DNA of 64,000 bases. Origin: a virus. Both the position numbers and the translations under genes were made by a program. Location of the stretch: the IMG/VR virus record IMGVR_UViG_3300022555_000024, positions 48,340-112,339 of that record; one strand, given 5' to 3'. The notes beneath the pieces are model-generated. The model saw only the letters and a list, made by a program, of their open reading frames with translations, was not told where the DNA came from and made no database searches. Of this stretch, positions 9,397 through 37,746 are shown piece after piece. How positions within the stretch are numbered: position 1 is the stretch's first letter; each line of letters opens with the position of its first letter.

Positions 9397-9431
9397 AATT
9401 TTAAATTTATAATACTTTAATTATATTAAAA

Positions 9432-11718: not shown

Positions 11719-12403
11719 AATCATTCAAGACGTGCATAACGGAGAAGAAGGATCACCTGATAGATAAATTGAAAATGACTGATTTTGAAAAAGCACAATT
11801 AAAAGACTTTTTCAAAAGGAAACCAAACCTAGAAAACAAGATTGACTGGCAAAAGAAAGATCTGGCCTTTAAGGATTTTGCGGATGTCATGTCCACAACG
11901 AAGACCGAAAGAACCAGGGCAGTCAGGAAGTCTGGCATCACAGGTCTCAAGAAAGGCATAGACTATCTAGAGGTCAAAACTCCAGCAGATTCGCCGTTCC
12001 AGGCCTACATCCCACTTACCTGGAAGCTAGCAAACTAATTGCATCCAACAAGATAGGACCCTGTACAGGTGAATGGTGCATATCTCATCATAGTGAAAAC
12101 AATGATTGGAATGTATATACAAAAGAAGGAGATGTATTTATTATGCTTATAGGACAAAGAACAAAATTAGCAATAAAAATAAATAAAAAAGATGTATTTC
12201 ATGTCTGGGATAGTGATGATAATCACTTAATTAAACATAATAGAGTTTGGGACTCAAACATATTTGGTGATAGTGCTGGTCATCATTTAGATATAGATAA
12301 ATTAATATCGGATAATAAGAATATTATAGATAATGCAAGAAAAATTGTAACACCTCAGATTAGAACAACTCCGATAAGAATTACACCTTATTTTGAGATA
12401 TAA
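11715..12403 (+). pseudogene. WCT-domain family member without Trp repeats; 1-nt frameshift at about 12021
   Basis: acctggaagct versus acctgggaagct in paralogues; adding one G reads TWEASKLIASNKIGPCTGEWCISHH and joins ORF 12143..12403; may be a sequencing error. Confidence 0.75.
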
Positions 12404-14563: not shown

Positions 14564-14974
14564 ATGTTCGAAGAACCAGCAAAATTTAAACTAGTATATG
14601 AAGTTCCCAGTGTAGAAAGCATATATTCATTTATAGTTAAAACTTCTTCTTATAATGTATATTTCAAACATATAGGGAATAATGTATATACTTCTAATTT
14701 TTTATTATATAGTCATAATGGTGAAATATTGATTACTATGGATAAGATAGATGTCGGCTTAGATGTTTCTATAGTTGTGTTTATAACATTCATAAATATA
14801 ATGAAAGATTTTGCTTCTAGAATAAACCCTAGCGCAATAGAATTTAGAGCAAATGATGCAGATAGTGAGAAACGAGCGTCTTTATATAAAACATTAACAA
14901 AGAAATTTATACCAGATGAGTATGAATTTTCTACAGTTTACATAATAACACCAAAAAATAAAATACATGAATAA
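14564..14974 (+). CDS. paralogue of 62891/63328 family
   Basis: VFITF..I.KDF.....P..I.F.A...R.SLY....KKFIP..YE shared with 63328..63771. Confidence 0.7.
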   Translation: MFEEPAKFKLVYEVPSVESIYSFIVKTSSYNVYFKHIGNNVYTSNFLLYSHNGEILITMDKIDVGLDVSIVVFITFINIMKDFASRINPSAIEFRANDADSEKRASLYKTLTKKFIPDEYEFSTVYIITPKNKIHE

Positions 14975-15932
14975 GTTATCAAAAAATGAAGTCAATGCAA
15001 CAGCAAGAGGCGGTTCTGAGTTACAAGCAGAGTATTTACAAAAATATGTTGCAAAAGAACTTCTAGATCAATTTCAAATAATAATAACAAGAGTTAGAGA
15101 ACTCGAAGACAAACCACGTTTACTCTGGTGTAAGGAAGTTGTTTCTGAACCAGAATCTCAGAGGTTAAAAGAACCTGCATTCCGTGATAATTTTAGATAT
15201 ATCATACACAATTCTGATTATCAGAGAAATCAGTTTAGAGATTATCTTGGAGTTCCATTTGAAAAATCACACGTCTTGAAAAATGCAATAGAACCATCGA
15301 ATATAGACATTTCTAAAAAATTTTTTCCAGAGAAGGTAAAACTTATTTATTCTTCTACTCCACAAAGGGGCCTTAATATTTTATATTCTGTTTTTGACGA
15401 GCTTTATAAGGATGACAAAAACATAGAACTAAATGTGTATTCTTCTTTTGATATCTATGGTCATCATGAAAGAAATAAACCATTTTTGCCACTGTTTGAT
15501 CAATGTAAATCTCATCCAGGGATAAATTATTATGGTTCAGTTTCTCATGAAGAATTGAAAGATGCTACAAAAGAAAATCACATTTTAGCATACCCTTCAA
15601 TCTGGGAAGAAAGTAGTTGCACTACTATCATGGAAAACATGAGTGCAGGAAATCTTATAGTGACTAATAACTTAGGAGCATTGCCCGAAACCAGTGCAGG
15701 TTTCTCCTTAATGTATGATTATCAATCTAACCTTAATCTACACGCACAGAATTTCTATAATACGTTAAAAGAAGGTATTGACAGTATAAGGGGCAACGGG
15801 ATAGGAAAAAAAATAAATGGAATGAGTATTACTAGCCTTTTAGAAGAACAAAAAAAATACGCAGACATTTTCTATAATTGGGAATTCAGAGGGCAACAAT
15901 GGACAGAATTCTTAACTAAATTGTTAAAATGA
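14967..15932 (+). CDS. GT-B (GT4-like) glycosyltransferase
   Basis: GGSE, YSSTPQRGL, YPSIWEESSC...E.MSAG...GALPET. Confidence 0.85.
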   Translation: MNKLSKNEVNATARGGSELQAEYLQKYVAKELLDQFQIIITRVRELEDKPRLLWCKEVVSEPESQRLKEPAFRDNFRYIIHNSDYQRNQFRDYLGVPFEKSHVLKNAIEPSNIDISKKFFPEKVKLIYSSTPQRGLNILYSVFDELYKDDKNIELNVYSSFDIYGHHERNKPFLPLFDQCKSHPGINYYGSVSHEELKDATKENHILAYPSIWEESSCTTIMENMSAGNLIVTNNLGALPETSAGFSLMYDYQSNLNLHAQNFYNTLKEGIDSIRGNGIGKKINGMSITSLLEEQKKYADIFYNWEFRGQQWTEFLTKLLK

Positions 15933-16529: not shown

Positions 16530-17693
16530 ATGGAAATACAGGCATTTGAACAGCAATTGATTGAGAAATTTGGCGGCGAAACAGTAACTAACAAAATGCT
16601 TCGTGAAGCATTTGGAAAAACGAACAAAAATTGGTATAATTATTTGCGTGCATATCGGCCAGAAACTGTTGTTGCGCGTGGATCATTTAGTATTCCAATG
16701 GAATTTGATATGGTTATTCCAACAACCCGTCAGAAAAAGGTTACTGTAACAAAAACAAAGCCAACCGCAAATTTATCACCAGAGATCTGTAGTACTGATG
16801 TTGCAGAAACTACATTCGGAGTCATTCCTGATATAGATCCTCTTTATGTACCATTCGGGTTTCACGCCTCTCTCAAAAAAATATTGAAGAAAAACTTTTT
16901 TTATCCAATATTTATCACCGGGCTTTCAGGAAACGGTAAAACAAAAAGTGTAGAGCAAGCTTGTGCAGAAATCTCAAGAAAACTGTATCGTGTTAATATT
17001 ACAGTTGAGACAGATGAAGATGATCTTATTGGTGGATTTAGACTTTTTGACGGAAATACCGTGTTTGAGCATGGACCTGTTATTAATGCAATGAAAGATG
17101 GAGCAGTGTTGCTGCTAGACGAATGTGATCTGGCTAGTTCTAAAATTATGTGTCTGCAGTCTATTCTTGAAGGAGGTTCGTATTATATTAAGAAAACAGG
17201 TGAAACTGTGAAGCCAGCACAGGGATTCACCATTGTAGCTACCGCAAATACCAAAGGACGCGGTTCTGAAGATGGTCGATTTGTTGGAACAAACATACTT
17301 AACGAAGCTTTCTTGGAGAGGTTTGTTATTACAGTTGAACAGGAATATCCTTCATCTATTGTAGAGAAGAATATTTTGACAAAACTCTTTACGAAATATG
17401 ATATTGATGACGATGATTTTGCAGACAAACTTACGAAGTGGGCAAAATGCATTCGTGATAGTTTCCTCAATGGATCAATGGATGAAATTATTACTACACG
17501 TCGTTTAGTACATATCGCAAAAACTTATAGCATTTTTTCGAATAAATTGGAATCTATTAAACTATGTCTTGCTAGATTCGATGAACAGTCTAAAATAGCA
17601 TTTTTAGACGCTTATACAAAAATTGATGCTACTGTAACAGAAGAAGAACCTGCGACAGAGAAATGTGAAGAAACAATCGAAACGCCTTTCTAA
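16530..17693 (+). CDS. MoxR/CobS-like AAA+ ATPase
   Basis: GLSGNGKT, DEDDLIGG, LLLDE, TANTKGRGS, NEAFLERF. Confidence 0.88.
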   Translation: MEIQAFEQQLIEKFGGETVTNKMLREAFGKTNKNWYNYLRAYRPETVVARGSFSIPMEFDMVIPTTRQKKVTVTKTKPTANLSPEICSTDVAETTFGVIPDIDPLYVPFGFHASLKKILKKNFFYPIFITGLSGNGKTKSVEQACAEISRKLYRVNITVETDEDDLIGGFRLFDGNTVFEHGPVINAMKDGAVLLLDECDLASSKIMCLQSILEGGSYYIKKTGETVKPAQGFTIVATANTKGRGSEDGRFVGTNILNEAFLERFVITVEQEYPSSIVEKNILTKLFTKYDIDDDDFADKLTKWAKCIRDSFLNGSMDEIITTRRLVHIAKTYSIFSNKLESIKLCLARFDEQSKIAFLDAYTKIDATVTEEEPATEKCEETIETPF

Positions 17694-17728
17694 TAATATC
17701 TATACATACTATATAGAAAAGGGTTCGT

Positions 17729-17791
17729 TTTCTTGTGGCGTAATTGGTTAACGCTTTTGTAAATATGCAGGTTCGAATCCTGCCAAGAAAA
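17729..17791 (+). ncRNA. tRNA-like RNA lacking a normal anticodon arm
   Basis: Acceptor TTTCTTG/CAAGAAA, D arm GCGT-AATTGGTTA-ACGC, T arm GCAGG-TTCGAAT-CCTGC; only 12 nt between D and T arms. Confidence 0.7.
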
Positions 17792-17900
17792 CAAAAATAT
17801 TTTAAATGATATAATTGAAAAGGCATTTTTGCAAAGTCTTTATAATATATAGGCGCGAAACATACGCCTAGGTTTAAGTATTAAGTATAAAACTTCATAC

Positions 17901-18152
17901 ATGACAAATTCTGTTATAATAGAACAAGATTTTATAGTAACAAATCCTACTATTAATAGAAAATATCATATATCATGGGCTTCTAGAAAAGGTATGGTAT
18001 GGATATTATTAGGATTTAATGATGAAAGAGCATATTTAATGACTCCTAAAACAAAAAAGTCTATAAGTTGTAGATTGAACGAATTAAGAGAAATTAATTA
18101 TTATGCTCAAATAAACGCGAGTAAAAGAGAAAAGAATACTTCCAACAAATAA
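17901..18152 (+). CDS. hypothetical protein
   Basis: ORF track, same strand as neighbours. Confidence 0.55.
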   Translation: MTNSVIIEQDFIVTNPTINRKYHISWASRKGMVWILLGFNDERAYLMTPKTKKSISCRLNELREINYYAQINASKREKNTSNK

Positions 18153-18357
18153 TTTTATAAACTAGTAAAAAGATAAAGTTATTCCATATGAATTGTAGTT
18201 ATAATAAAATTCAAGATCCGGTTTTTAAAATAGGGGATAAAGTTATTCTTATTAGTAATGAATATGAATATGAGATAATAAATATTACTTATGATTGGCA
18301 AGGATACAGATACATTTTATTGGGTGGTTTGCATGTATATGAATCTCATTTAAAAAA

Positions 18358-18430
18358 GGCCTTATAGCTCAACTGGTTAGAGCAGTAGACTGTCGATCTA
18401 CAGGTTTGGAGTTCGATTCTCCTAAGGTCG
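18358..18430 (+). tRNA. tRNA-Asp (GTC)
   Basis: GGCCTTA/TAAGGTC-G; GCTC/GAGC D stem; GTAGA-CTGTCGA-TCTAC anticodon arm; 4-bp T stem. Confidence 0.85.
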
Positions 18431-18585
18431 CTAATAAATCCCTCCATCAAACATCTCAATTATCGAGAGAGTTAATGTTATTCAAAATTTTATAATTTCA
18501 AGTTTATTCAAGTAATAAAATTATTTTTACTTTTAAAGAAAAATGGTTATATTATACTATATGAATAACTAAACAATATTATATT

Positions 18586-20844
18586 ATGTCTATAGCACTT
18601 AGAGAAACAAAATCACTATTGGCTAAACTTTTGGCTGGTGAGAATATTTCTATTGAACATCGTAAAGTTCGTACTGCAGCATTTGATGTTAAAAACCGCG
18701 TATTGATTCTTCCCATTTACAAAAAAGATATTGAACCATCAGTGTATGATGTGTTTGTTGCACATGAAGTTGGTCATGCTCTTTTCACTCCTTTAGACGA
18801 GAATATAGTAAAAAATAGAGCGCTATTTCAGTATGTTAATATGGTAGAAGACATCAGAATAGAAAAACTTATGAAAAATAAGTACGAAGGTCTTACTAAA
18901 GCGTTTTTTAAAGGATATTCGTACTTGGCCGCAGATGATTTTTTTGGTATAGCCAACGAAGATATTTCAACATTGAGTCTTTTTGATAGACTCAATCTTC
19001 ATTCGAAAATTTCTACACCTGGTTATTTTAATGAAATAGAACAGGGTTTTGCTGATCGTTCTAAAAAACTTCTTACTTTTTCTGAAGTTGTTCAATTAGC
19101 AAAGGAAATTAAGGAATATGATAATAGACCAGACGAAAAAGAATCAGATGATTCTGAGTCAGAGGTTACTGAAGTAGAAAATGGAGAAGATGGCGAAAAT
19201 ACTAATGGTTCTAAGGATAAAAACAAAGATAAGAAGAAATCTGACAAAAAGGAAAAGTCCGAAGAAGGAGACAGTGAAGGTGAAGGAGACAGTGAAGGTG
19301 AAGGAGACAGTGAAGGAGACGACGAAGGCGATAGCGAAGGCGATAGCGAAGGTGACGACGAAGGAGACGACGAAGGCGATAGCGAAGGAGACGACGACGA
19401 TTCTGGAAAAACATCAAATAGAAAACCACGAAATAGAGAAAGAGTTACTGCAGACAATGCAAAGAATAAATTGAACGATTTTATTGATAACAATGCTACA
19501 GAATTAAAATATGTAAAAATTTCGAATTTTAATATAACTTCATTCATAGACAGTCATGATGAAATTCTAAATGAACTGAATAAAGTTTTTGAAGAAACTC
19601 CTCTTAATATAGATAATTTTGCTCTGTTTAAAACGCAAAATCAGAATGTAGTTAATTATCTTCATAAAGAATTTGAAATGAAGAAAAATGCAGAACAGTA
19701 TAAGAGAGAACAATTTGCTACATCAGGTTCTATTGACTGTAATTTGGTGCATAAATATAAATATGATGATAATATATTCAAAAGAATAGCAACAGTTCCT
19801 AATGGAAAATCTCACGGTCTTGTTATGCTATTGGATTTTTCTGGATCTATGTCTCATATAATCTCAGATACCATAAAACAAATCATCACTTTGGTATTAT
19901 TTTGTAAGAGAGCTGGAATTGCATTCGAGGTATACGCATTTAGAGATAGTAGCGATACCCTAAACGAATTTGATAAATATCAAAATCTTAAGGAAAATGA
20001 AGTTGTTTTGTGCTCAGGGTTTAAACTTTTAAATTTTATTTCAAGTAAACAAAGTGGACTAAAATTTACACAAGCACTTGCTAATCTATGGAGAATTGGA
20101 TTAATTGTAGGAAGAGAAGCTTGGGCTTGGCAGCAAGATAATTTTAAAAGTAAAGTTAGAATTTCTGGAAAATATACTCTTTCTGGAACACCTTTAAACT
20201 CTGCTTTAATAGCAAGCCCGAAATTGATAGAAAAATTTCGTCATGATCATAAATCACAGGTTGTTCATTTGGTAGTTCTTACAGATGGTCAAGCTACAGA
20301 TGATATGAGAGTTGTGAAAGGATTACCCGGCAGTTATTATGGTTCAAAGTATACAACGTCATACATTTCAAACGCTATTATTAAACATGGGCATAAAAAC
20401 TATCCTACATTAATAGAAATGCCGCATGGTAATAGAGACAGTAGAGACTCTATTACTAATGCCTTAATATTATACGTAAAAGAAATTTCTAATGTTAGAG
20501 TTGTTGGTTTTTCTCTAATATCAAGATTGAGTGAATTTTCCAGCGTTCATTCATATTCTAAAATAGAAAGTAGCAATAACTATTACGAAGAGCATCAGAA
20601 ATTGTCTAAAGATGGAAGTATAGCACTTACGGGATGCGCGTATAATGAATTATATGTTATTAGAACTGATAAAAGTAATTTTAGTTTTGATACTGAAAGC
20701 CCAAATTTTACACCAAATAACATGAAAGATGCAATTAAAGATGTAAAAGGAATGTTTTCGAGACAAGCGAATTCAATAAAGAAGCAGAGAGTTGTTTTAA
20801 ATAAATTTATTACAATGATCTCCAATCCTATTCTAAACTTTTAA
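18586..20844 (+). CDS. CobT-like metallopeptidase-vWA protein, partner of the AAA ATPase
   Basis: HEVGH, acidic linker, DFSGSM MIDAS, GTPL, LTDG. Confidence 0.85.
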   Translation: MSIALRETKSLLAKLLAGENISIEHRKVRTAAFDVKNRVLILPIYKKDIEPSVYDVFVAHEVGHALFTPLDENIVKNRALFQYVNMVEDIRIEKLMKNKYEGLTKAFFKGYSYLAADDFFGIANEDISTLSLFDRLNLHSKISTPGYFNEIEQGFADRSKKLLTFSEVVQLAKEIKEYDNRPDEKESDDSESEVTEVENGEDGENTNGSKDKNKDKKKSDKKEKSEEGDSEGEGDSEGEGDSEGDDEGDSEGDSEGDDEGDDEGDSEGDDDDSGKTSNRKPRNRERVTADNAKNKLNDFIDNNATELKYVKISNFNITSFIDSHDEILNELNKVFEETPLNIDNFALFKTQNQNVVNYLHKEFEMKKNAEQYKREQFATSGSIDCNLVHKYKYDDNIFKRIATVPNGKSHGLVMLLDFSGSMSHIISDTIKQIITLVLFCKRAGIAFEVYAFRDSSDTLNEFDKYQNLKENEVVLCSGFKLLNFISSKQSGLKFTQALANLWRIGLIVGREAWAWQQDNFKSKVRISGKYTLSGTPLNSALIASPKLIEKFRHDHKSQVVHLVVLTDGQATDDMRVVKGLPGSYYGSKYTTSYISNAIIKHGHKNYPTLIEMPHGNRDSRDSITNALILYVKEISNVRVVGFSLISRLSEFSSVHSYSKIESSNNYYEEHQKLSKDGSIALTGCAYNELYVIRTDKSNFSFDTESPNFTPNNMKDAIKDVKGMFSRQANSIKKQRVVLNKFITMISNPILNF
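19266..19400 (+). repeat. acidic coding repeat (GDSEGE/GDDEG)n
   Basis: ggagacagtgaaggtgaa and related tandem units. Confidence 0.8.
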
Positions 20845-21576
20845 AAAAGGAGTATGTGATAAATCCATTTTACGAATTCACCTTAACAACTACAGGTGCC
20901 CCTCTCTTTATAGATGTAACTCAGATAGGGGCATTTTATCGTTATATTCCATCTCAAATCCCTGAGGATGAAGATGATGTAGAAACTACAATAGTAAGGA
21001 TAGATGAAGAATGTTCATGGTCTATAGTAGAATCTCCAAAATACATAAACGATTGTATTAATGAATTAATAACAGCAAACAATTACGGTTTTAAAAACGA
21101 TTAAAAACAAATAAAACAAAATGGTATCATTATTTTATAATCAGGATTATAAGGTTACGTGGTGGTCTACAACTCCGCTAGGTGAATTTAGACTCGTTTG
21201 TTGGAGTGGAATATGGAATATATTCTTAAATAAAGTTTTTTTTGATGATGCTTACTCTTTTAATGAGGGTTTGGCTAAAATAGAAGCCCACATTAAAGAA
21301 AATTGTCCCAGAGAAAATGTTGAACAATGACATTATCAGAATGCAAACATGGCCAATGGTATGAAATTGTAGATGGATTAGGTTTTATAAAAAATGAAAC
21401 TACCATCTTATATGAATATTTACGAGAAGATAATACTCATTTTGTTGTAGGGGAAAGCCCCTATGATGAAATGGGAATTGTTGTTTCTATGGAAAACGCA
21501 AAGAAAATAATCGTTTCAGAACTCTTCTTTTAAAGTCACGCTTTTATTTTTGATTTATTTTTCTATATTAATGTAT

Positions 21577-22011
21577 ATGGAAAATAAATCAAAAGTTGGA
21601 AAAATTGGTGAACTCTTGTGGATTAGAGAATTTGGTGGAAAGCAATTAGATGATGCTTTTGATCAAGAATGTGATGTTTTTTTGGATGACAAAAAAATAG
21701 AAATTAAAACACAAGTTAGATTTTACAAAGAAAATGCCTTCACTGTAGATAAAAATCAACTTCAAAAATGCCTAGGCTGGCCAAATCTTAAAAAGGGATT
21801 CGGTGCTCAGTTTCTACATTTCGTTGAATACGATTTGTGCACTCCTATTATTACATTTTGGGAATGTTCAGATAGATTCGATTATAGGGAATTAAGTAAT
21901 GGGAGAATAGCTTGGGATATTAGTAAAATGACAAAAATCAAGGAAATACAAGATGTCGAATCATCAATGCAGTTGCAACAAAACACGAGCTCAAGATATA
22001 GAGCAAACTGA
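21577..22011 (+). CDS. PD-(D/E)xK nuclease-like protein
   Basis: GKIGE...CDV...IEIKT. Confidence 0.5.
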   Translation: MENKSKVGKIGELLWIREFGGKQLDDAFDQECDVFLDDKKIEIKTQVRFYKENAFTVDKNQLQKCLGWPNLKKGFGAQFLHFVEYDLCTPIITFWECSDRFDYRELSNGRIAWDISKMTKIKEIQDVESSMQLQQNTSSRYRAN

Positions 22012-22339
22012 ATCTATTAAAGTACTTTTAGAAGCTTTAGATATTCAGCGTAAAAAATCTACAGATTATCAAAATCCAAATTCTAGTATACATCAAGCAG
22101 ATTATTATCCCAGAGGAGTATCTTCCATATTAGATATAATTCAAGGTAAAGCACTTCGCATCAGATCTGTTATAGAAGCTATGGAAAATGATGTTAATTA
22201 TACTCCAAATTTCGAGTCTATAGAAGATTCATGTATAGATTTAATAAATTATGCATCTTTTGCGGTATCTTATTGTAGAGGAAAAATGGATGGTCAGAAA
22301 GCTGACAAAGATTTTTTGAATAGAAAAATAAAAAAATAA
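21953..22339 (+). CDS. nucleotide-modification-associated domain 1 (DUF1599/MazG-like) protein
   Basis: KKSTDY...DYYPRG...SIEDSCIDLINYASF; adjacent to gp42-like gene. Confidence 0.7.
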   Translation: MSNHQCSCNKTRAQDIEQTESIKVLLEALDIQRKKSTDYQNPNSSIHQADYYPRGVSSILDIIQGKALRIRSVIEAMENDVNYTPNFESIEDSCIDLINYASFAVSYCRGKMDGQKADKDFLNRKIKK

Positions 22340-22343
22340 AAAA

Positions 22344-22994
22344 ATGATTTCTACAATAGATAAAATACGCGATGAGTTTCGTATTAAATTATTATCTGGA
22401 ACATTTGTTATAGACAAAACCGGGGTAAAAACAGTAGATATTATAGGTGCAAAATTTTTAGCTAATGAACCGTTTATTTTTGGTACACCAAATCAAGATT
22501 ATATAAGAAGAGAATTAGCATGGTATGAATCTCAGAGCAGAAATGTTTATGATATTGAAGAACCAGTACCATTAATTTGGAAAAAATGTGCAAGCCCGGA
22601 AGGTCTTATTAATTCTAACTATGGTTGGTGTATTTATTCTAAAGAAAATGGATCACAATATGATAACGTTTTAAAGGAACTTCGGCAAAATTCTGAATCT
22701 AGACGGGGCCAGATGATATATACGAGACCCAGTATGCATTCCGATTTTAATACAGATGGAATGTCTGATTTTATGTGTTGTAGCAACACAACTCATTTTA
22801 TAAGATCGGGAGAATTAGAAACAACTGTAAATTTTAGAAGTCAGGATGCTGTATTCGGTTATAATAATGACTATGCATTTATGAAATATGTTCACGATAA
22901 ATTGGCTAATGATTTAAATATAAGACCTGGAAATATTCATTGGTTTGCATCTTCACTCCACATTTATGAACGACACTTTAAATTTATAAAATGA
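22344..22994 (+). CDS. 42: dCMP hydroxymethylase (T4 gp42-like, thymidylate synthase fold)
   Basis: NSNYGW, IYTRPSMH, DFMC catalytic Cys, RSQDAVFGYNNDY with Asp at the dCMP-specificity position, SLHIYERHF. Confidence 0.85.
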   Translation: MISTIDKIRDEFRIKLLSGTFVIDKTGVKTVDIIGAKFLANEPFIFGTPNQDYIRRELAWYESQSRNVYDIEEPVPLIWKKCASPEGLINSNYGWCIYSKENGSQYDNVLKELRQNSESRRGQMIYTRPSMHSDFNTDGMSDFMCCSNTTHFIRSGELETTVNFRSQDAVFGYNNDYAFMKYVHDKLANDLNIRPGNIHWFASSLHIYERHFKFIK

Positions 22995-23440
22995 CAGAAA
23001 AAGAACTTTATTGGGCAAAAAGATACTTAGGAATAGCTAAAGAAGTGTCAACGTGGTCAAAGGATCCATCAACAAAAGTTGGTGCTGTTGCTGTTGGTTC
23101 AAAGGGCCAAATATTATCTCAGGGTTTTAATGGTTTTGCTCGGGGTATTAAAGATACCACCGAAAGATTAAATAACAGAGAAATGAAATATTCTCTGATG
23201 GTTCATGCAGAAATGAATACTATTTATAATGCAACTTATAATGGAGTATCTCTCGATGGAGCTTCTCTATACGTTTATGGTCTTCCTGTATGTAGTGAAT
23301 GTGCAAAGGGAATTATACAGGTTGGGATACGTTCTGTTTATATGAACATAGAATCAGAATGGCCTGAAAAATGGAAAGATTCTTGGGAATTTACCAAGAC
23401 AGTATTTACAGAATGTGGTGTTAAATTTTATTTAATATGA
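22991..23440 (+). CDS. cd: dCMP deaminase
   Basis: SKDPSTKVGA, HAEMN, PVCSECAK. Confidence 0.9.
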   Translation: MTEKELYWAKRYLGIAKEVSTWSKDPSTKVGAVAVGSKGQILSQGFNGFARGIKDTTERLNNREMKYSLMVHAEMNTIYNATYNGVSLDGASLYVYGLPVCSECAKGIIQVGIRSVYMNIESEWPEKWKDSWEFTKTVFTECGVKFYLI

Positions 23441-24540
23441 AAATAGCTGTTATTAAGTTAGGGGCACGGTTAGTATTTGGCGATAAGGTTGGTTCTAGTG
23501 GCGGCAGTGGTGAAGCTCAATCATTGGTAAATATGTTATCAGAAGCTGGAGCAGAAGTTCATTGTTTTACAAAGATACTTAAGGATGATTATATACCAAA
23601 TGATATTAATATACATCAAATAGAAGAAGAATATTCAACAGTGAACACTTATGATATACTTATTGTTATAAACGGAACTGTGAACTTTTTTGGAGGTGTT
23701 GCTGATAATTCACAGATTTTAAATTATCATATGATAAACAATTTTTCTAAGAAAGTTATATACATTCATTGTGATCCCAATCTTCCTTTGAAACAACTTT
23801 GGCCTTCTATAAAGAATAGAACATGGGCTTCTGATTGGAAAGAATCTGATATAGTTATTGTTAAGAAAATAGATGTAGTTACTCAATCAACAAACATAAC
23901 AAAAGTACTGACAGCATTTAAGGACATACATATAGATAAGATTTTTCAATACGATTTCCAGAAATTTCCTATGATGTTTGTAAAACCACAAATATCAGAA
24001 GAAAGAATTTATACATCTGACTTATCTTATGGCGGAACATTTAGAGCAGGCCGCAGAGAAAAGAAATTAATAGAATTTTACTTTGGGTATCCCGAAGATT
24101 TAAAAGTAGAATTGTTTGGGAAAATTAAAGAAGAAAAATTTAACCCCCAAAAAGTAGGAACTCTTAGATCTCCAAACTTTTCTGGCCCAGTTGATTACAA
24201 TAAAATGCTTCATAAAATGTCAGAATCCAAAGCACATGTTGCTATAGGGGATGGACATTACCCAGAGTTTGGGATGATTTCTCAGAGAGTATATGAGTCA
24301 ATCATGTCTGATTGCGTTACGTTTATAGATATAGATTTTGATAGAAATAAAAGAGTTTTTGGAGACACTGAATTAGGTAAATTTCTTTATGTAACAAATA
24401 GAGATCAAGTTTATAAAAGGTTAAAAATGTTAACTAATTCTGAGCTAAATACTATAATAAAATTACAACATAAAATAGTAGATTTTAATAGAGATACATA
24501 TTGCTCCGATTTTTATAAACTAATTCAAAATTTAGCATGA
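23437..24540 (+). CDS. DNA beta-glucosyltransferase-like enzyme
   Basis: MKIAVI, YDILIVINGTVNFFGG, LPLKQLWPSIKNRTWA, YGGTFRAGRREKK, RVYESIMSD..FID.DFD; collinear with T4 Bgt as recalled. Confidence 0.85.
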   Translation: MKIAVIKLGARLVFGDKVGSSGGSGEAQSLVNMLSEAGAEVHCFTKILKDDYIPNDINIHQIEEEYSTVNTYDILIVINGTVNFFGGVADNSQILNYHMINNFSKKVIYIHCDPNLPLKQLWPSIKNRTWASDWKESDIVIVKKIDVVTQSTNITKVLTAFKDIHIDKIFQYDFQKFPMMFVKPQISEERIYTSDLSYGGTFRAGRREKKLIEFYFGYPEDLKVELFGKIKEEKFNPQKVGTLRSPNFSGPVDYNKMLHKMSESKAHVAIGDGHYPEFGMISQRVYESIMSDCVTFIDIDFDRNKRVFGDTELGKFLYVTNRDQVYKRLKMLTNSELNTIIKLQHKIVDFNRDTYCSDFYKLIQNLA

Positions 24541-25343
24541 CACAAATAAAAGATACATTCGATGATTCATCATCCATGTTTTTTAATAATAATTATTTTG
24601 GGAATGCAAAGTTTTCCAACGGGTGGCACATGTCGTTTGCCTTTAGATATACTACAACATGTACAGAAATTTTAAGAGTAAAGAGAGAAAATCAACAAGA
24701 CTCACTAAAAATATTAGATATTGGGTGTGGTAACAAGACATTTTACAGATTTTGGATGTGCAATTTTGACTCCCATTGTAGACCTAGAATTAATTATGTC
24801 GGTTTAGAGTACCTTAAGGATGTTGTGGAAGAAGCAAATAAGACCTCCAGCGAGACTTTTGCCAATTCAAATGAAGTAATTCAATATGATTTGAATACAC
24901 AATCACTGCATGACATAGGAAAATTTGAAAAATATGATGTTATACTTTTACAGGAAATTCTAGAACATGTTACAGAAGAAACTGGTAAATCTCTTTTAAA
25001 AGAAGCAAAAGAAATTTTATCAGATCGAGGTTTCATAATTGTTTCGTCTCCTAATCCAAAAAAATCTCAAGGACAAGAATTTGTCTGGCCGGAAAATCAT
25101 ATTCAGGAGTTTACTTTAGACGAAATGAAAGCTATGATTCAGGAAGCAGGATTTTCTATTAAACGTGTGAATGGTTGGTTGGGTAAAGCTAAATATTTTA
25201 AGAAATTGCTAGATAAAGAAACTTTAGATTTGTATAATAATGTTAAAGATGTATCTCAAGGTTTAGCTGCTAGTATTATAGCATTCATGAAACCAGAGAT
25301 AGCTGAATGCTATATTATAGTTGCCGAAAACAATAAAAAATAA
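24537..25343 (+). CDS. class I SAM-dependent methyltransferase
   Basis: ILDIGCG, YDVILLQEILEHV, SSPN, H..EFT. Confidence 0.85.
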   Translation: MTQIKDTFDDSSSMFFNNNYFGNAKFSNGWHMSFAFRYTTTCTEILRVKRENQQDSLKILDIGCGNKTFYRFWMCNFDSHCRPRINYVGLEYLKDVVEEANKTSSETFANSNEVIQYDLNTQSLHDIGKFEKYDVILLQEILEHVTEETGKSLLKEAKEILSDRGFIIVSSPNPKKSQGQEFVWPENHIQEFTLDEMKAMIQEAGFSIKRVNGWLGKAKYFKKLLDKETLDLYNNVKDVSQGLAASIIAFMKPEIAECYIIVAENNKK

Positions 25344-25347
25344 TAGT

Positions 25348-25753
25348 ATGCAAAAATACGTTTTGGGTTTTATATTTGATACTGGATTGGAACACGTAGT
25401 ATTAATAGAAAAAAAACAGACCTGATTGGCAAAAAGGAAAACTCAACGGAATAGGAGGTAAGATAGAATATAATGAATCTCCTTTAGATGCTATGATAAG
25501 AGAAGCACATGAAGAAACAAACGTAACGTCGGATCTTTGGCTTTACGTTGCTACTTTATATTTTACAGAATGCGAATTGCATGTATTTGCTGTAAGTGGA
25601 TTGGAGTATTATCAAGCAATTTCGATGACCGATGAAAAAATCCAAAAGTTAAGAATAAAAGATCTTGGTATTACTACTATTAAACCAATAGAAAATGTTC
25701 CATCATTGATAACTTTAGCTAAACAATCTTTAATAACAGAATTTTATACATAA
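25348..25753 (+). CDS. Nudix hydrolase, apparent extra A in A8 run at 25409-25416
   Basis: Removing one A gives MQKYVLGF...RPDWQKGKLNGIGGKIEYNESPLDAMIREAHEET (Nudix box). Confidence 0.8.
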
Positions 25754-25756
25754 AAT

Positions 25757-27538
25757 ATGAAAATTGTAATATTCTCTGGTGGCACCGGATCTGTTGGTTT
25801 ACAACGAGGACTTTATAAAGTTTTTGGTCCTGATTGTTTAGATTATTCTGTTATAATTAATTGTTATGATAATGGAAAAAGTACTGGTACTTGCCGCCAA
25901 GTTTTTGACGGAAAAATATTAGGACCATCAGACTTAAGAAAAAATCAACTTCTTAGACACGAATTATCTCATGGTAATAATAAGCTTTTAGAATTTTTAG
26001 AACAACGTCTTACTTTTTCTTATTCTGATATAGAAGATGCGATAACTGATCAGTTGGTAGATTTATTAGACAAAAATGATGAGCATGAACTCGATTTGTA
26101 TTCTATTTGTATGGAAGGAACCCAACTTTTTTTTAACTCAGAAAATGCTACTAATGTAGAGTATAAAGACTTTTCTGTAGCTAATATAATATATTCGGGT
26201 TTAGCATCAAAGTATGGTATGAACGGAGCAGCGAAACAAATGTCTAGAGTTCTTGGAATATATCCGGACGATGTTATTTGCAACGATGATACCTCACTCT
26301 TTTTACAAGCCAAAACCAAATCGGGTCATATAATATCAGATGAAGGAGATTTGGTAGAATGGAATAATGCGGAAGATAAAATAACAGAATGTTTTTTGTT
26401 AGATGTAGATGGAAATCAAGCAACACCAATCTTAACAACTGAATGTAAAGATTTAATAGACAATGCAGATGTTTTAATATTTTCATCAGGAACTCAATGG
26501 TCTTCTCTTATCCCAACTTATATGTCTATAGGATTTACAGAAGCTATATCTAAGAGTAAAGCTAAGAAATATGTAGTTTTAAATACGTCTCAGGATAAAG
26601 ATATTAAAGGCCTGTCTGGTTTAGAACTTCTTGATCTAATAACAACTCATCTTAAAGTTGATACCAAGACACTTATCCCAGTTATTTCTAGTAATGCATC
26701 TGATGATATTTTAATAACACCCGATCAAGTAGAACAAGTAAAACAAAAATTTGCAGATGTTGTTTATTCCGAAATGAGTGAAGGGAATAAACACAATCCA
26801 AATAAACTAGTTCTTTCTATATTTGGGAATTATTTTGGAATTAAAACTATTTTAGATAGAAATAATTTAGTCTTTGATTTAGATGACACTGTAATAGCAA
26901 GAAATCTAAATTTTGAGTGGATTTCGAGAGAAAATTGTGCAATGTTTGACTTTATTAACAGATCAAACAAACTTTCTTTGTTTATCTGTACAGGAAACGA
27001 TGTTAGCAAATTGAAAGGACATTTCGAAACATCTATAAACACCTTTGCGGATGGCGGCGTTAATGAATATCTAGTATCTAAAGAAAACATAACATTTATA
27101 AAGCATTTAGATAATGATATGCTTATCGAAAAATCCACAATGGAAACTCTTATAGAACTCTTAGATGTTCATGGAATACCAAAGCGTATGATACAGAATA
27201 GAAACAATTCTATTTTATCTATTAGACCTATATTACCTGAATATAGATATTCAATTTTTAATTTAATTTTCTATATTCTAATAATAAATAATTTGAATGA
27301 TAGGATAGAAGTAAAAATGACAGGAAATAGTACGGTAGAATTGTCTACCATATCGTTATCTAAAACTGTTATTATGAACACTATATTTAAGGATAAGGAA
27401 ATTTCTTACGTTGGGGACGAGCCTATTGGAAACGATAAGGATATGTTTTCTAATCCAAAAATTCATGGAATAAAAGTTAAGGGAGCTTTTGACACAAATA
27501 TGTTATTAAAAATATTATGCATTCACTCATTATCGTAG
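25757..27538 (+). CDS. CofD/YvcK (UPF0052)-like domain fused to HAD phosphatase
   Basis: N-term FSGGTG, DNGKSTG, GPSDLRK, ADVLIFSSGTQWSSLIP; C-term FDLDDT, CTGN, YVGD...GND. Confidence 0.8.
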   Translation: MKIVIFSGGTGSVGLQRGLYKVFGPDCLDYSVIINCYDNGKSTGTCRQVFDGKILGPSDLRKNQLLRHELSHGNNKLLEFLEQRLTFSYSDIEDAITDQLVDLLDKNDEHELDLYSICMEGTQLFFNSENATNVEYKDFSVANIIYSGLASKYGMNGAAKQMSRVLGIYPDDVICNDDTSLFLQAKTKSGHIISDEGDLVEWNNAEDKITECFLLDVDGNQATPILTTECKDLIDNADVLIFSSGTQWSSLIPTYMSIGFTEAISKSKAKKYVVLNTSQDKDIKGLSGLELLDLITTHLKVDTKTLIPVISSNASDDILITPDQVEQVKQKFADVVYSEMSEGNKHNPNKLVLSIFGNYFGIKTILDRNNLVFDLDDTVIARNLNFEWISRENCAMFDFINRSNKLSLFICTGNDVSKLKGHFETSINTFADGGVNEYLVSKENITFIKHLDNDMLIEKSTMETLIELLDVHGIPKRMIQNRNNSILSIRPILPEYRYSIFNLIFYILIINNLNDRIEVKMTGNSTVELSTISLSKTVIMNTIFKDKEISYVGDEPIGNDKDMFSNPKIHGIKVKGAFDTNMLLKILCIHSLS

Positions 27539-28254
27539 CAGCTGGAAATGGTAGTAGGATGGGCAGTATTCCCATTCCTAAGGCTTTATTTCCAATTAAT
27601 GGAAAACCAAATATAGAATGGATTATAGAAAGTGCTAGAGGTTATTTTGATGATATTATTATTGTAGCAAGAAATGGGTTTGGATTTCATTTTAACTATT
27701 TAAAAAATTCAAAAGAAACTCCAATAAGTATTCTAGAAATAAGTTCAGGATTAGGTGACGGCCATGCAGTTCTTTCTACTCTTCAAATTCTAAAGGATCA
27801 AGGGAAATTGGATGAAAGAATAATAACAATAATATGGGGAGATTTATATTGTCCTACTTCTATACTTTTTGTCGAATTAAAATCTCACATTTCAAATATA
27901 TCTAGACAGCCAATAATAGTTCCTGTAGCATACGAGAAAGATCCATATGTACATTTTTCTATAGATCCTGATGGAAAAATACGAGCAGCAAATTTTAGTA
28001 AATTTGGAGAAATTATAACAGAAGGTCTTCATGATCAATCAGTATTTATGGGCAGTGCGAGAGTGTTTCTTAAATTTTTAACAGATTTGCATAATTCTTT
28101 ATGGAAAGATGGCAAATATGTATCAAATTCGGGTGAACTCAACATGCTTCATATCTTCCATCTTATGTATAACGTAGGTTCTCCAGCCATAGTTCATATA
28201 ACAGAAAATATTTTATCATCCTATAACTCGGTCAAGGAGGCCGAAAAAATATGA
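27517..28254 (+). CDS. sugar-phosphate nucleotidyltransferase (NTP_transferase)
   Basis: IIVAAGNGSRMG...PKAL, GDGHAV, IWGD. Confidence 0.85.
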   Translation: MHSLIIVAAGNGSRMGSIPIPKALFPINGKPNIEWIIESARGYFDDIIIVARNGFGFHFNYLKNSKETPISILEISSGLGDGHAVLSTLQILKDQGKLDERIITIIWGDLYCPTSILFVELKSHISNISRQPIIVPVAYEKDPYVHFSIDPDGKIRAANFSKFGEIITEGLHDQSVFMGSARVFLKFLTDLHNSLWKDGKYVSNSGELNMLHIFHLMYNVGSPAIVHITENILSSYNSVKEAEKI

Positions 28255-28703
28255 CACCTCAATTGAAATTTTGTAAAGTAGCAGATGTAAAATCACCAAC
28301 AAGAGCACATAGTACAGATGCGGGAATTGATTTTTTTGTACCAAATGATTTTATAGAAACCTTATTAAAACCTGGTTGTTCTATTCTTATTCCATCTGGA
28401 ATTAAGGTCGATGTACCTATTGGGTGGGCTTTAGTATTCTTTAATAAATCTGGTGTTGCCGTTAAGAAGAATCTTTTGGTAGGAGCGGAAGTTGTAGATT
28501 CTGGATATGAGGGTCAAGTACACATACATCTTATCAACGTGGGTACAGGAATTACTACAATATCATCAGGAGAAAAGATAATTCAAGGTATTATGTTACC
28601 TATAGGTTCTCACTTTCCCATTGAAACTTTAGAAGAAGATATGTGGAAGGATTCTAAATCTGATAGAGCAGAAGGCGGTTTTGGTTCTTCTGGTGTAAAA
28701 TAA
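28251..28703 (+). CDS. dut: trimeric dUTPase
   Basis: AGIDF, KSG, VVDSGYEG, R.EGGFGSSG. Confidence 0.92.
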   Translation: MTPQLKFCKVADVKSPTRAHSTDAGIDFFVPNDFIETLLKPGCSILIPSGIKVDVPIGWALVFFNKSGVAVKKNLLVGAEVVDSGYEGQVHIHLINVGTGITTISSGEKIIQGIMLPIGSHFPIETLEEDMWKDSKSDRAEGGFGSSGVK

Positions 28704-34016: not shown

Positions 34017-34811
34017 ATGAAAAAATTACTAATTATTCTTGGGATACTTTTAACATCTGCAACTGCTTATTCTAAACCTATTATAATTGATGGCTCAACA
34101 ACAGTAGGTCCAATAGCAAAATCTTTTGCATCAGAATTCCAAAAGAATGGAATTGAGGTTTCAGTGTCAGAATCTGGCTCTGGAAACGGTGTAAAGTCAC
34201 TACTCAATGGAACTTGTGACGTTGCAACTTCTTCAAGACATTTAAAACAAGAAGAAATTACCGCAGCAAGTACGAAGGGAGTGCATCCTGTTCTAACAAT
34301 AGTAGCTCTTGATGGATTGTCAGTTATAGTTCATCCAAGTAATCCAATAAAGAATCTTACTATTCAACAAGTAAGTGATATCTATACCGGAAAAATAACA
34401 AATTGGAATCAAGTAGGTGGTCCATTTGCTATTATTAATGTTATTCAACGAGAATCTAATTCTGGTACACAGGAAGCGTTCCACGAGTTGGTTATCGGAA
34501 AGGATAATCATACTAAACAAGGTGCAGAAACTCAATCATCATCTGGTGCTGTTAAGAATAGAGTAGCATCAACACCTTCTGCGATTGGTTATGATGGTCT
34601 TGGATTTGTTGATAAATCTGTTAAAGCATTAACAATAAATGGAATCAAGGCATCCTCTATAACAGTTAAAAGTAATCAATATAAGATATCTAGGCCTTTA
34701 TATTTTATAACAAATGGTGCACCAGTAGGAAATGTTAAATTGTTTGTTGATTATGCAAAAAGTGTTTCAGGAAAAAAAATAATTACCGAACTAGGATTCA
34801 TAGTAAAATAA
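34017..34811 (+). CDS. pstS: phosphate ABC transporter substrate-binding protein
   Basis: Signal peptide, DGSTTV, GSGNG, SSR, VALDG, RESNSGT, AIGY, SRPLY. Confidence 0.92.
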   Translation: MKKLLIILGILLTSATAYSKPIIIDGSTTVGPIAKSFASEFQKNGIEVSVSESGSGNGVKSLLNGTCDVATSSRHLKQEEITAASTKGVHPVLTIVALDGLSVIVHPSNPIKNLTIQQVSDIYTGKITNWNQVGGPFAIINVIQRESNSGTQEAFHELVIGKDNHTKQGAETQSSSGAVKNRVASTPSAIGYDGLGFVDKSVKALTINGIKASSITVKSNQYKISRPLYFITNGAPVGNVKLFVDYAKSVSGKKIITELGFIVK

Positions 34812-37251: not shown

Positions 37252-37746
37252 ATGAATGTTCTATTATTAAATGTAGATTACACTCCCCTAGACACTATAA
37301 GTGTTGAAAGGGCTCTTATTCTATACTTCACAGAAAAGGTAGAAATTGTTCATGCTAAAGTTGATCAATTTATTCATACTATTACAAAGACGTTTCCTTT
37401 TCCTGAGGTTGTTCGTTTAAAACATTACATTTATCTTCGTAAAAAACAGATGAGTCCTACCAAAAGGAATATTTTTGAAAGAGATATGCATATGTGTCAG
37501 TATTGTGGATCTACAAAGCATCTTACACTAGATCATATTATCCCCGTTTCTAAGGGAGGTCAAAACACTTGGAAAAATCTTACTACTGCATGTTTTAAAT
37601 GTAATAATAAAAAGGGTGATAGAACAGCAGAAGAAGCAAAAATGGTACTAAAAAGAGAACCCGCATTGCCTACTCATATTCATATAATTAAAAAGTATTC
37701 AGATGATAATAAACTGAAGACTTGGGAACCTTATATTTTTATGTAG
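37252..37746 (+). CDS. HNH endonuclease
   Basis: RD..CQYCG...TLDHIIP.SKGG...W.NL..AC..CNNKKG. Confidence 0.92.
   Translation: MNVLLLNVDYTPLDTISVERALILYFTEKVEIVHAKVDQFIHTITKTFPFPEVVRLKHYIYLRKKQMSPTKRNIFERDMHMCQYCGSTKHLTLDHIIPVSKGGQNTWKNLTTACFKCNNKKGDRTAEEAKMVLKREPALPTHIHIIKKYSDDNKLKTWEPYIFM

Follow-up and report, generated by a model that had tools for sequence, protein, structure and literature searches.

A T4-type hydroxymethylcytosine pathway linked to a conserved, putative sugar-donor cassette in an uncultured T4-like phage

Results

The close-packed string of genes at positions 21571-28703 of a 64,000-nt stretch from an uncultured T4-like phage (the window, i.e. the whole of the DNA analysed), all on the + strand, is best read as a T4-type hydroxymethylcytosine (hmC) DNA pathway combined with a conserved cassette for sugar-donor synthesis; we assign this reading a probability of about 0.5. 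All of the genes that a first-pass annotation had named are present where it had placed them, all on the + strand. The tight coupling that it described holds from the Nmad1 to the dUTPase gene, over which consecutive genes overlap at their start and stop codons or have 3-5 nt between them, with ATGA overlaps at 22991, 23437, 24537 and 28251 and a 22-nt overlap between the nucleotidyltransferase start (27517) and the end of the preceding fusion gene.

The gp42-type dCMP hydroxymethylase (5hmdCMP synthase; 22344-22994, +) matches T4 dCMP hydroxymethylase (PDB 1b49/1b5e) with an E-value of 3.5e-73. At the positions diagnostic for thymidylate synthase (TS) homologues, taken from PMC13326640, it keeps the catalytic Cys (DFMCC) and has an acidic residue at ThyA L143, while its RSQD motif retains ThyA D169 and its NND motif has Asp in place of ThyA N177; the cytosine-type Asp, the column of which is marked by the PDB D179N mutant entry, is kept. 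The cytosine (hmC) pathway proposed in the annotation is thus borne out by an hmC-type signature, which is present in all of the approximately 23 TS homologues of cassette-bearing phages. A 5-hydroxycytosine-type TS was considered and rejected, since the signature is of the hydroxymethyl type and not of the 5-hydroxycytosine type described in 2026 (PMC13326640).

The adjoining GT63 DNA β-glucosyltransferase homologue (23437-24540, +) aligns over its full length with T4 BGT (1bgt, E 1.6e-45; residues 1-352 against 1-335) and keeps the equivalents of T4 E22, D100, R191, R195, R269 and E272, i.e. catalytic and UDP-binding residues, all six of which show little or no variation among 21 cassette-linked homologues. 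Presence of the cassette divides by GT63 subclade, being observed for 28/30 close relatives versus 0/26 distant ones, T4-like proteins included.

Between these two genes lies that of a T4 cd-like dCMP deaminase (22991-23440, +; PF00383, E 3e-17; phrog_174, E 3e-38), and the string ends with a trimeric dUTPase homologue (28251-28703, +; PF00692, TIGR00576), the best phage matches of which are annotated dUTPases of Bacteroidota phages. A dUTPase gene also lies 3' of the nucleotidyltransferase gene in two other loci (L076, L084), and directly after Bgt in a clade without the cassette; the dUTPase, like the deaminase, is a common enzyme of nucleotide-pool metabolism. At the 5' end, the Nmad1/DUF1599 protein (21953-22339, +; PF07659, 26.8 bits, cut-off 25; phrog_1485) belongs to a family that is virus-only in the Atlas and has a weak likeness to MazG-like proteins (TM 0.41); it is absent beside the cassette in the other loci examined. 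The small ORF before it (21571-22011, +; start uncertain), which overlaps it by 59 nt, is a possible, weakly supported PD-(D/E)xK nuclease. Its description as nuclease-like fits a D...EIK motif visible in the translation and the PDDEXK_14 assignment of 23% of its Atlas language-model feature neighbours, but finds no match in Pfam, PHROGs or NCBIfam, and the ORF is not conserved beside the cassette in the other loci examined.

Two further genes precede the fusion gene. The class I SAM methyltransferase (24537-25343, +; Pfam Methyltransf_23/31/12/11; AF2 model pLDDT 84) has only 15 homologues at E≤1e-5 and occurs in approximately five cassette loci, in the same slot in L006/L007, L008 and L084 and in a different one in L024; it is a narrow, lineage-specific accessory. 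Foldseek matches to its model are to generic small-molecule methyltransferases, the sugar O-methyltransferase RebM appearing at rank 29, and such generic matches count against the preferred reading. The Nudix hydrolase gene (25348-25753, +; three-frame translation; PF00293, 32 bits on 25409-25753) does encode a Nudix box, but is not the intact gene previously supposed: as assembled, its start (25348-25422) and its Nudix-box part (25409-25753) are in different frames, which meet at an A8 run (25409-25416), the frameshift site. It is not conserved with the cassette in relatives.

The next gene (25757-27538, +; PF01933; TIGR04357/TIGR01826) encodes a protein in which a YvcK/UPF0052 (CofD superfamily) domain, approximately residues 1-345, is fused to a phosphomannomutase (PMM)/α-phosphoglucomutase (α-PGM)-like HAD-IIB domain, approximately residues 360-593. 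Searched against the PDB, the family profile matches, for the N-terminal domain, the YvcK-type structure 2ppv (4e-23) far better than CofD (3c3d, 0.33). The closest solved relatives of the HAD domain are phosphomannomutases (7myv, 1.8e-11) and α-phosphoglucomutase (4bnd, 1.2e-7) rather than phosphatases. The HAD motifs FDLDDTV and GDE..GND are present, with D374, D376, T378, K536 and G553-D560 invariant. In the YvcK-like domain, too, many polar residues are invariant; of D38 and D39, both of which are required for the uridyltransferase activity of GlmR, the family keeps the first and has Asn (N39) at the second, a point against the preferred reading. The fusion family comprises 408 cluster representatives at E≤1e-30, and natural YvcK-PMM-nucleotidyltransferase triple fusions, as well as one GT2-YvcK-PMM fusion, were found.

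The following gene encodes a GlmU-like sugar-1-phosphate nucleotidyltransferase (27517-28254, +; PF12804, NTP_transf_3). The best 50 Foldseek PDB matches to its AF2 model (pLDDT 94.6) are all hexose/heptose-1-phosphate nucleotidyltransferases (TMq 0.65-0.82), with the GlmU N-domain, HddC, RmlA, GMPP and GalU among them. The sequence profile also matches alditol-phosphate cytidylyltransferases with similar E-values, which counts against the preferred reading.

The core trio of GT63, fusion and nucleotidyltransferase is present in approximately 30 IMG/VR phage contigs and in the Ralstonia jumbo phage RsoM2USA, the sole cultured cassette-bearing phage found. In 31/34 IMG/VR loci and in RsoM2USA the fusion gene is closely preceded by the Bgt-like gene, in the order GT63-fusion-nucleotidyltransferase, and an hmC-type TS homologue was found in every cassette-bearing record large enough to look. 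The fusion and nucleotidyltransferase are thus tied to Bgt and gp42 in relatives, as the annotation had predicted, and the co-occurrence is far above chance expectation. The annotation's set of four extra enzymes relative to T4 survives in part, the fusion and nucleotidyltransferase belonging to the conserved module and the methyltransferase and Nudix genes falling outside it. In bacterial MAGs the fusion gene adjoins that of the nucleotidyltransferase in 27/27 loci, as in most phage loci; there the neighbours are GT2/GT8 glycosyltransferases, epimerases, Bac_transf, Wzx and Wzz, and neither Bgt nor gp42 is present in the 27 loci. In several other phage loci a guanylate-kinase-family gene, not found in this record, is translationally coupled to the nucleotidyltransferase gene. 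The cassette is widespread but unstudied, literature searches having returned no paper that describes it.

Discussion

Gene identities, active-site signatures and gene linkage are what the sequence shows; the enzymatic steps, the choice of sugar and any departure of the final base from β-glucosyl-hmC are inferred from them. The gp42-type enzyme would make 5hmdCMP, which after phosphorylation and replication would place hmC instead of C in the DNA, with the dCMP deaminase, dUTPase, Nudix and Nmad1 genes probably serving nucleotide pools. The PMM-like half of the fusion would convert a hexose-6-phosphate to the hexose-1-phosphate, the GlmU-like enzyme would convert this to an NDP-hexose, and the GT63 enzyme would move the hexose onto the hydroxymethyl group of hmC in DNA. 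Searches of the 112-kb record, itself 62% complete, turned up no homologue of the dNMP kinase (gp1) or the dCTPase (gp56), and this counts against the proposal.

The cassette most likely makes an activated sugar, an NDP-hexose with which the phage would supply its own glycosylation of hmC. The earlier suggestion of a phage-encoded donor fits the nucleotidyltransferase fold, the PMM-like HAD domain and the bacterial contexts, and phage-encoded donor synthesis for DNA glycosylation has precedent (PMC13326640, PMC12838424). Since donor synthesis needs only a mutase and a nucleotidyltransferase, this reading leaves the YvcK-like domain unexplained; in our proposal it would be a required third function of that pathway, which could lie in accessory nucleotidyl transfer, in the sensing of NDP-sugars or in tailoring. 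The joining of T4-type hmC genes and transferase to a donor cassette suggests that the DNA base may differ from that of T4, and a base other than glucosyl-hmC is plausible on sequence grounds. In this phage lineage the target of the methyltransferase may be the sugar or a precursor of it. The annotation's final base, decorated beyond glucosyl-hmC with an O-methyl group or a phospho-adduct, is less well supported.

It is possible, though on balance rather unlikely, that the cassette product is ordinary UDP-glucose, freeing the phage from a UDP-glucose-poor host, with plain β-glucosyl-hmC in the DNA as in T4 and the methyltransferase acting on another target. The catalytic and UDP-binding residues of the GT63 protein are those of T4 BGT, a PMM/α-PGM-like mutase with a GlmU/GalU-like nucleotidyltransferase is exactly what UDP-glucose synthesis needs, and most cassette loci lack the methyltransferase. 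An always-fused, highly conserved YvcK-like domain would, however, have no role in such a scheme; the cassette accompanies a distinct GT63 subclade, never T4-like ones, as if donor or acceptor had changed, and the bacterial polysaccharide loci that bear it hold other sugar-nucleotide enzymes too.

A role for every cassette activity in one sequence arises if the YvcK/CofD-like domain moves hexose-1-phosphate from the NDP-hexose to a hydroxyl of glucosyl-hmC or hmC, with release of NMP, giving a phosphodiester-linked adduct that is methylated in this lineage. CofD does such transfer chemistry on a primary alcohol in F420 biosynthesis; the domain is in its superfamily (PF01933) and has invariant polar residues, as in an active enzyme; the always adjacent glycosyltransferase could supply the acceptor, and the coupled guanylate-kinase-family gene elsewhere fits recycling of the released NMP. 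We nonetheless consider this doubtful, slightly more so than UDP-glucose synthesis, in that the domain is far nearer to YvcK/UPF0052, a family for which we know of no phosphosugar transfer, the partner is GlmU-like rather than CofC-like, and the guanylate-kinase-like gene is missing here and may simply encode an hmdCMP kinase. It is very improbable that the cassette has no part in DNA modification and serves instead to glycosylate a surface component of the virion or host, simply neighbouring the DNA-modification genes. Bacterial cassettes do lie in cell-surface polysaccharide loci and the window has a second glycosyltransferase, of GT1/GT4 type (14967-15932), but in phages very distant from one another the cassette is nearly always directly 3' of GT63, often with codon overlap, and five further phage records with the cassette, of which three are complete, lack the GT1-type gene.

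In T4, glucosylation employs gp42, the dNMP kinase gp1, the dCTPase gp56, the cd deaminase and GT63, with host UDP-glucose as donor. In common with T4, the locus described here has the gp42 active-site signature, a neighbouring dCMP deaminase gene and a full-length GT63 homologue that keeps the catalytic and UDP-binding residues. By contrast, T4 has gp1 and gp56, homologues of which were not seen in the present partial record, and lacks the YvcK-PMM fusion, nucleotidyltransferase and methyltransferase; T4-like IMG/VR contigs are likewise without the cassette.

Phage NDP-sugar synthesis, by a HAD enzyme and a nucleotidyltransferase, is likewise encoded next to a TS homologue and DNA glycosyltransferases in the RB69 and DLP3 clusters for arabinosylation of 5-hydroxycytosine (PMC13326640) and in the pentose system of Shewanella phage Thanatos (PMC12838424). 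Their TS homologues, however, have Asn at ThyA D169 and make 5-hydroxy-dCMP, whereas Asp is kept here and in all checked cassette-bearing phages, and their donor enzymes come from other families (arabinose-5-phosphate isomerase, kinase-nucleotidyltransferase and GmhB-like phosphatase), without GT63.

Among solved structures, the fusion N-terminal domain is closest to GlmR/YvcK (UPF0052) of Firmicutes, with which it has the motifs GGTG, D-x-G-x-S-x-G-x-x-R and P-x-D-x-R in common. GlmR is reported to bind UDP-GlcNAc and to be an accessory GlcNAc-1-phosphate uridyltransferase, although its role as an enzyme in the cell is disputed. The phage domain differs in its fusion to a PMM-like domain, in having Asn at the position of the second catalytic Asp, in replacement of the TQxGET-type motif of aligned YvcK and in its gene neighbours. 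The pairing of a nucleotidyltransferase with a CofD-superfamily protein recalls CofC/CofD, but CofD proper is a marginal match, the phage partner has a GlmU and not a CofC fold, and no F420 genes lie near the cassette locus. As with the ManB/ManC or Pgm/GalU supply genes of polysaccharide loci, a mutase and a nucleotidyltransferase adjoin glycosyltransferases; the cassette mutase, however, is of the eukaryote-type HAD family, not an α-D-phosphohexomutase, and is always fused to a YvcK-like domain.

The phage and its modification cluster

The window, 64 kb long, is the 3' part of a 112-kb IMG/VR virus record (completeness 62% by CheckV); its GC content is ~30% and its + strand carries nearly all of its genes. 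Among the proteins encoded by the record is a major capsid protein of the T4 type (Gp23, 376 bits), and UvsX-like, DnaB-like, primase, RNase H, and PNKP genes are present within the window, so the phage is a T4-like myovirus. The best matches of its dUTPase homologue (28251-28703) are in Bacteroidota phages and it has a PstS phosphate-binding protein gene (34017-34811), together giving only a hint of an environmental host, possibly a member of the Bacteroidota.

Ten co-directional genes, the stop and start codons of which overlap or nearly abut, lie at 21571-28703. The first-pass annotation had read them as an extended cytosine hypermodification operon, probably making a base beyond the glucosyl-hmC of T4. 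The gene string itself is confirmed, whereas its interpretation is supported in part. Profile searches identify the predicted Nmad1/DUF1599 (21953-22339), thymidylate synthase (TS) homologue (22344-22994), dCMP deaminase, and T4 beta-glucosyltransferase family (GT63, 23437-24540) genes, as well as those for a class I SAM methyltransferase (24537-25343), a CofD/UPF0052 domain (within 25757-27538), a MobA-like NTP transferase (27517-28254), and the dUTPase. The first ORF (21571-22011), which had been called nuclease-like, is without any profile match, though it has a D...EIK motif and language-model neighbours, part of them with PDDEXK_14. Just upstream of the cluster, inside a small ORF (21327-21533), is an 18-pair hairpin with a T-rich tail (21436-21475), which may be a terminator or regulatory element; a promoter/terminator scan was uninformative, promoter-like sites being fewer than in shuffles.

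Predicted base specificity and glucosylation

The TS homologue is closely related to T4 dCMP hydroxymethylase (gp42; 1b49, E 3.5e-73) and, with motifs DFMCC, RSQD, and NND, retains the residues altered in the PDB mutants C148S and D179N, namely the catalytic Cys and the Asp that specifies cytosine. A 2026 paper describes 5-hydroxy-dCMP synthesis by close gp42 relatives from numerous phages, RB69 and DLP3 among them, with an Asn at the ThyA D169 position being proposed as diagnostic of 5hodCMP synthases; 5hmdCMP synthases, besides the TS fold and catalytic Cys, have Asp in place of ThyA N177, retain the Asp of ThyA D169, and are acidic at the position of ThyA L143 (PMC13326640). The TS homologue has all the features of the T4-type dCMP hydroxymethylases (5hmdCMP synthases); in particular the ThyA D169 position is Asp (in RSQD) and the ThyA L143 position is acidic, so the enzyme is of the hydroxymethyl type. 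The same applies more widely, in that every TS homologue checked from loci bearing the cassette described below has Asp at both diagnostic positions. A 5-hydroxycytosine pathway is ruled out, since the diagnostic Asn at ThyA D169 occurs neither here nor in any cassette-linked homologue. Hypermodification via dUMP/thymidine, as might be prompted by the presence of the deaminase and dUTPase, is likewise ruled out by the Asp specificity residue and the strong match to T4 gp42.

Alignment with T4 BGT extends along the entire GT63 homologue (1bgt, residues 1-352, E 1.6e-45). The equivalents of the T4 catalytic residues E22 and D100 and of the nucleotide-binding residues R191, R195, R269, and E272 are all retained and are invariant or nearly so across 21 homologues. 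By full-length similarity and these six residues it belongs with the GT63 DNA beta-glucosyltransferases. Its identity to the cassette-linked group is at least 38% and to T4-like enzymes 28-31%, a grouping from which neither a UDP-glucose donor nor a beta-glucosyl-hmC product can be read.

With respect to nucleotide supply, the dCMP deaminase and dUTPase are pool enzymes. No guanylate-kinase-family (dNMP kinase) match was found in the 112-kb, 62% complete record, and no hmdCMP-accepting dNMP kinase or dCTPase among the 10 ORFs scanned with PHROGs. Candidates for a dCTPase are the frameshifted Nudix gene, the dUTPase homologue, and Nmad1; assignment of the dUTPase as a T4 gp56-like dCTPase is without support, as it matches ordinary trimeric dUTPases.

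A YvcK-like/mutase-like fusion with a sugar-1-phosphate nucleotidyltransferase

Downstream of the GT63 gene is a cassette encoding a 593-residue fusion protein (25757-27538) and the nucleotidyltransferase (27517-28254). The N-terminal domain of the fusion belongs to the UPF0052 sequence family, the fusion-family profile matching the YvcK-type protein 2ppv (E 4e-23). It is not CofD (2-phospho-L-lactate transferase) proper, which would be nearer to CofD/FbiA than to the other branches of UPF0052 and would have a CofC partner and neighbouring F420 genes: the match to CofD is poor (3c3d, E 0.33) and the partner enzyme here has a GlmU-type fold. GlmR/YvcK, the cellular role of which is disputed, has been reported to be a GlcNAc-1-P uridyltransferase requiring two consecutive Asp residues (PMC10128056, PMC12637504), i.e. 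D38 and D39 in Bacillus subtilis GlmR (PMC12637504). In 23 aligned members of the fusion family the first is invariant, but the second is Asn in at least 90%; the YvcK-like domain lacks the GlmR Asp pair and is therefore not a simple GlmR. Many further polar residues are invariant in this domain, a pattern that argues for a catalytic role rather than a relic.

The last 230 residues of the fusion contain intact HAD motifs (FDLDDTV, CTGN, a conserved Lys, and GDE..GND), with D374-x-D376-x-T378, T412/G413, K536, and G553-D554-E555...N559-D560 being invariant in the family. The similarity of this domain to phosphomannomutase (PMM) is invisible with a single sequence and appears only with a family profile, by which the C-terminal half matches PMM 7myv (E 1.8e-11, positions 360-578) and Lactococcus alpha-phosphoglucomutase (E 1.2e-7). 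Possession of motifs I-IV and profile similarity over the whole domain assign it to the eukaryote-type PMM/alpha-phosphoglucomutases (HAD-IIB). Phosphatases score much lower (PfHAD1 4zev and 1nf2, E 0.11 or worse), as does an unnamed HAD-like hydrolase (4qjb, E 0.016). The HAD domain is thus predicted to be a mutase rather than a phosphatase, the only indication being that all its strong PDB matches are mutases.

The nucleotidyltransferase has an N-terminal AAGNGSRMG loop, with G10, R14, and K22 invariant. All 50 of the best PDB neighbours of its predicted structure (pLDDT 94.6) are hexose/heptose-1-phosphate nucleotidyltransferases, i.e. the GlmU N-domain, HddC, RmlA, GMPP, and GalU (Foldseek, TMq 0.65-0.82), with CofC, MobA, and IspD being absent from these 50; IspD and TarI rank just slightly lower by sequence profile. 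The G-x-G-x-R loop, the Lys, and the fold over the full domain identify it as a sugar-1-phosphate nucleotidyltransferase of the GlmU N-domain/RmlA type.

Distribution of the cassette in phages and bacteria

When used as a single protein, the fusion retrieved no match from viral contigs; an alignment query was needed to recover loci. A word-indexed search gave full-length relatives by the hundreds, many on contigs of 100-345 kb, and an exhaustive profile search gave 408 representatives of 50% identity clusters (E<=1e-30), almost all spanning both domains. Gene 1 of the cultured Ralstonia jumbo phage RsoM2USA is a full-length relative, and the order there of Bgt-like (gene 2), fusion (gene 1), and NTP transferase (gene 486, across the record start) genes is that observed here, with an hmC-type TS homologue (gene 10) 6 kb away. 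The paper on RsoM2USA contains no discussion of DNA modification.

Among 34 IMG/VR loci recovered by the family-alignment search, a Bgt-like gene is located 0-2.7 kb upstream of the fusion gene in 31, the nucleotidyltransferase gene adjoins it in 28, mostly directly downstream, and a gp42 homologue is within 10 kb in 20. Where gp42 is outside the flank, it was found elsewhere on the record in four of five cases, the exception being a 20-kb fragment. The first-pass annotation would have been refuted had the extra genes not co-occurred with gp42/Bgt in relatives; for the fusion and nucleotidyltransferase these loci show that they do. The methyltransferase gene, by contrast, is found in about five cassette loci, and the Nudix gene is not conserved with the cassette.

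The reverse test covered 56 non-redundant Bgt-like loci, with search patterns that had been built from cassette-linked sequences. The fusion was present in 28 of the 30 with at least 38% identity to the window Bgt, but in none of the 26 more distant loci; the cassette therefore accompanies a single GT63 subclade. The distant, cassette-free loci include T4-like contigs of ~170 kb and a clade with gp42, Bgt, and dUTPase genes. The latter (loci L114-L133 and L136) is a separate phage clade, with a compact gp42-like, Bgt-like, dUTPase order and no cassette. Together with the nucleotidyltransferase, dUTPase order in loci L076, L084, and here, the Bgt, dUTPase order in this clade suggests, we infer, that an older gp42...Bgt-dUTPase arrangement received the cassette by insertion. 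The steady pairing of Bgt and dUTPase hints at a role for the dUTPase homologue in the hmC pathway, perhaps in dCTP removal. Several other cassette phages carry a guanylate-kinase-family gene that overlaps the 3' end of the nucleotidyltransferase gene (L013:12602-13261, L023:12678-13343, and equivalents in L015, L018, L021, and L030); its product could recycle NMP, or could simply be the hmdCMP kinase.

The cassette also occurs in bacteria, the fusion and nucleotidyltransferase genes being adjacent in 27/27 loci from metagenome-assembled genomes, with neither Bgt nor gp42 there. These are polysaccharide loci, encoding GT2 and GT8 glycosyltransferases, NDP-sugar epimerases/dehydratases, and Bac_transf, Wzx-like, and Wzz-like proteins; the immediate neighbour of the cassette is usually a glycosyltransferase. 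Single-chain proteins of 715-807 residues (P0219, P0224, P0229, P0249, P0251, and P0214) combine YvcK-like, PMM-like, and NTP-transferase domains, and in P0236 (1007 residues) a GT2 domain precedes the YvcK-like and PMM-like part.

Accessory genes and other features of the window

The Nudix gene reported in the first-pass annotation is present, but not as an intact reading frame: its first 24 codons (25348-25422) and the part with the Nudix box (25409-25753; PF00293, 32 bits) are read in different frames, which meet in an A8 run (25409-25416). Either a homopolymer assembly error or real inactivation, i.e. a pseudogene, may be responsible; exact-pattern scans of viral and metagenome contigs gave no other copies of the region. 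The closest relatives (L006/L007, L008, and L084) have the methyltransferase gene in the same place as here, between the Bgt and fusion genes, and L024 has it elsewhere; just 15 homologues were found among 5.8 billion clustered proteins. As a guide to its substrate, its predicted structure gives just generic small-molecule class I methyltransferases; that it methylates a sugar is a reasonable guess, no more. For Nmad1 there was no PDB match and a MazG-like likeness of just TM 0.41. Other cassette loci conserve neither it nor the Nudix gene nor the nuclease-like ORF. A second glycosyltransferase gene (14967-15932; GT1/GT4-type, phrog_2170), 6.5 kb upstream of the cluster, is missing from five other cassette phages and was rejected as part of the module.

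Elsewhere, an HNH endonuclease gene and a nearby 141-residue ORF (37252-37746 and 38570-38995) were observed, the latter matching positions 91-223 of 634 in an ATP-dependent DNA ligase profile; the ligase gene may have been split or invaded by a homing element. ARAGORN predicts a tmRNA-like gene at 706-1072 (tag ADTFEYRMAA) and a tRNA-Asp at 18358-18431. There are also genes for a CobS-like AAA ATPase and its large partner (16530-20844), and NAD salvage-type genes for a ribose-phosphate pyrophosphokinase-like protein and a nicotinamide phosphoribosyltransferase (43335-44219 and 46005-47612). Two stretches (8000-12000 and 60000-63000) have raised GC (0.40-0.44), strong GC skew, and long ORFs open in several frames, as is typical of repetitive coding sequence.

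Possible roles of the cassette and comparison with known systems

Taken together, the natural fusions and gene neighbourhoods suggest a single pathway in which all three activities of the cassette take part and which feeds a Leloir-type glycosyltransferase. The transferase family, and hence the acceptor, varies between loci, which is how a unit for donor synthesis would be expected to behave. To make an NDP-hexose, a mutase plus a nucleotidyltransferase is enough, so this reading gives the YvcK-like domain no part. Were the domain to move hexose-1-phosphate from the NDP-hexose onto a sugar hydroxyl in the manner of CofD, all three activities would be used in turn, with a phosphodiester-linked adduct as the result. 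It is conceivable, though we consider it unlikely, that the YvcK/CofD-like domain puts hexose-1-phosphate from the NDP-hexose supplied by its partner enzymes onto glucosyl-hmC in DNA, with the sugar being O-methylated in this lineage; if so, the product would be a phosphodiester-bridged, methylated disaccharide on cytosine, a DNA base of an undescribed kind, and the reaction would be the first defined for this branch of the YvcK family. That the base differs in some way from plain glucosyl-hmC is plausible, with about even odds.

Whether a phage can be cut by a given restriction, CRISPR, or type IV system is determined by its DNA hypermodifications, which are also a source of enzymes for biotechnology. 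The module is widespread, occurring in T4-like phages, jumbo phages, and bacterial glycan loci, and is tied to one DNA glucosyltransferase clade; since RsoM2USA is a cultured phage that has it, the question is directly testable. For the YvcK/GlmR family, long a matter of debate, the fusions also serve as a Rosetta-stone clue, in that the YvcK-like domain is joined to a sugar-phosphate mutase, and sometimes to a sugar-1-phosphate nucleotidyltransferase or glycosyltransferase, placing the family firmly in sugar-nucleotide metabolism. In the open-access literature we found no paper linking a CofD/YvcK-family protein to phage DNA modification.

The predicted pathway is similar to hmC glucosylation by T4, with a self-made donor as an addition. 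For phage-encoded donor synthesis in DNA glycosylation there is precedent in the arabinose clusters of RB69/DLP3 and in Thanatos. These systems use enzyme families other than those of the cassette and, in the case of RB69 and DLP3, also another base.
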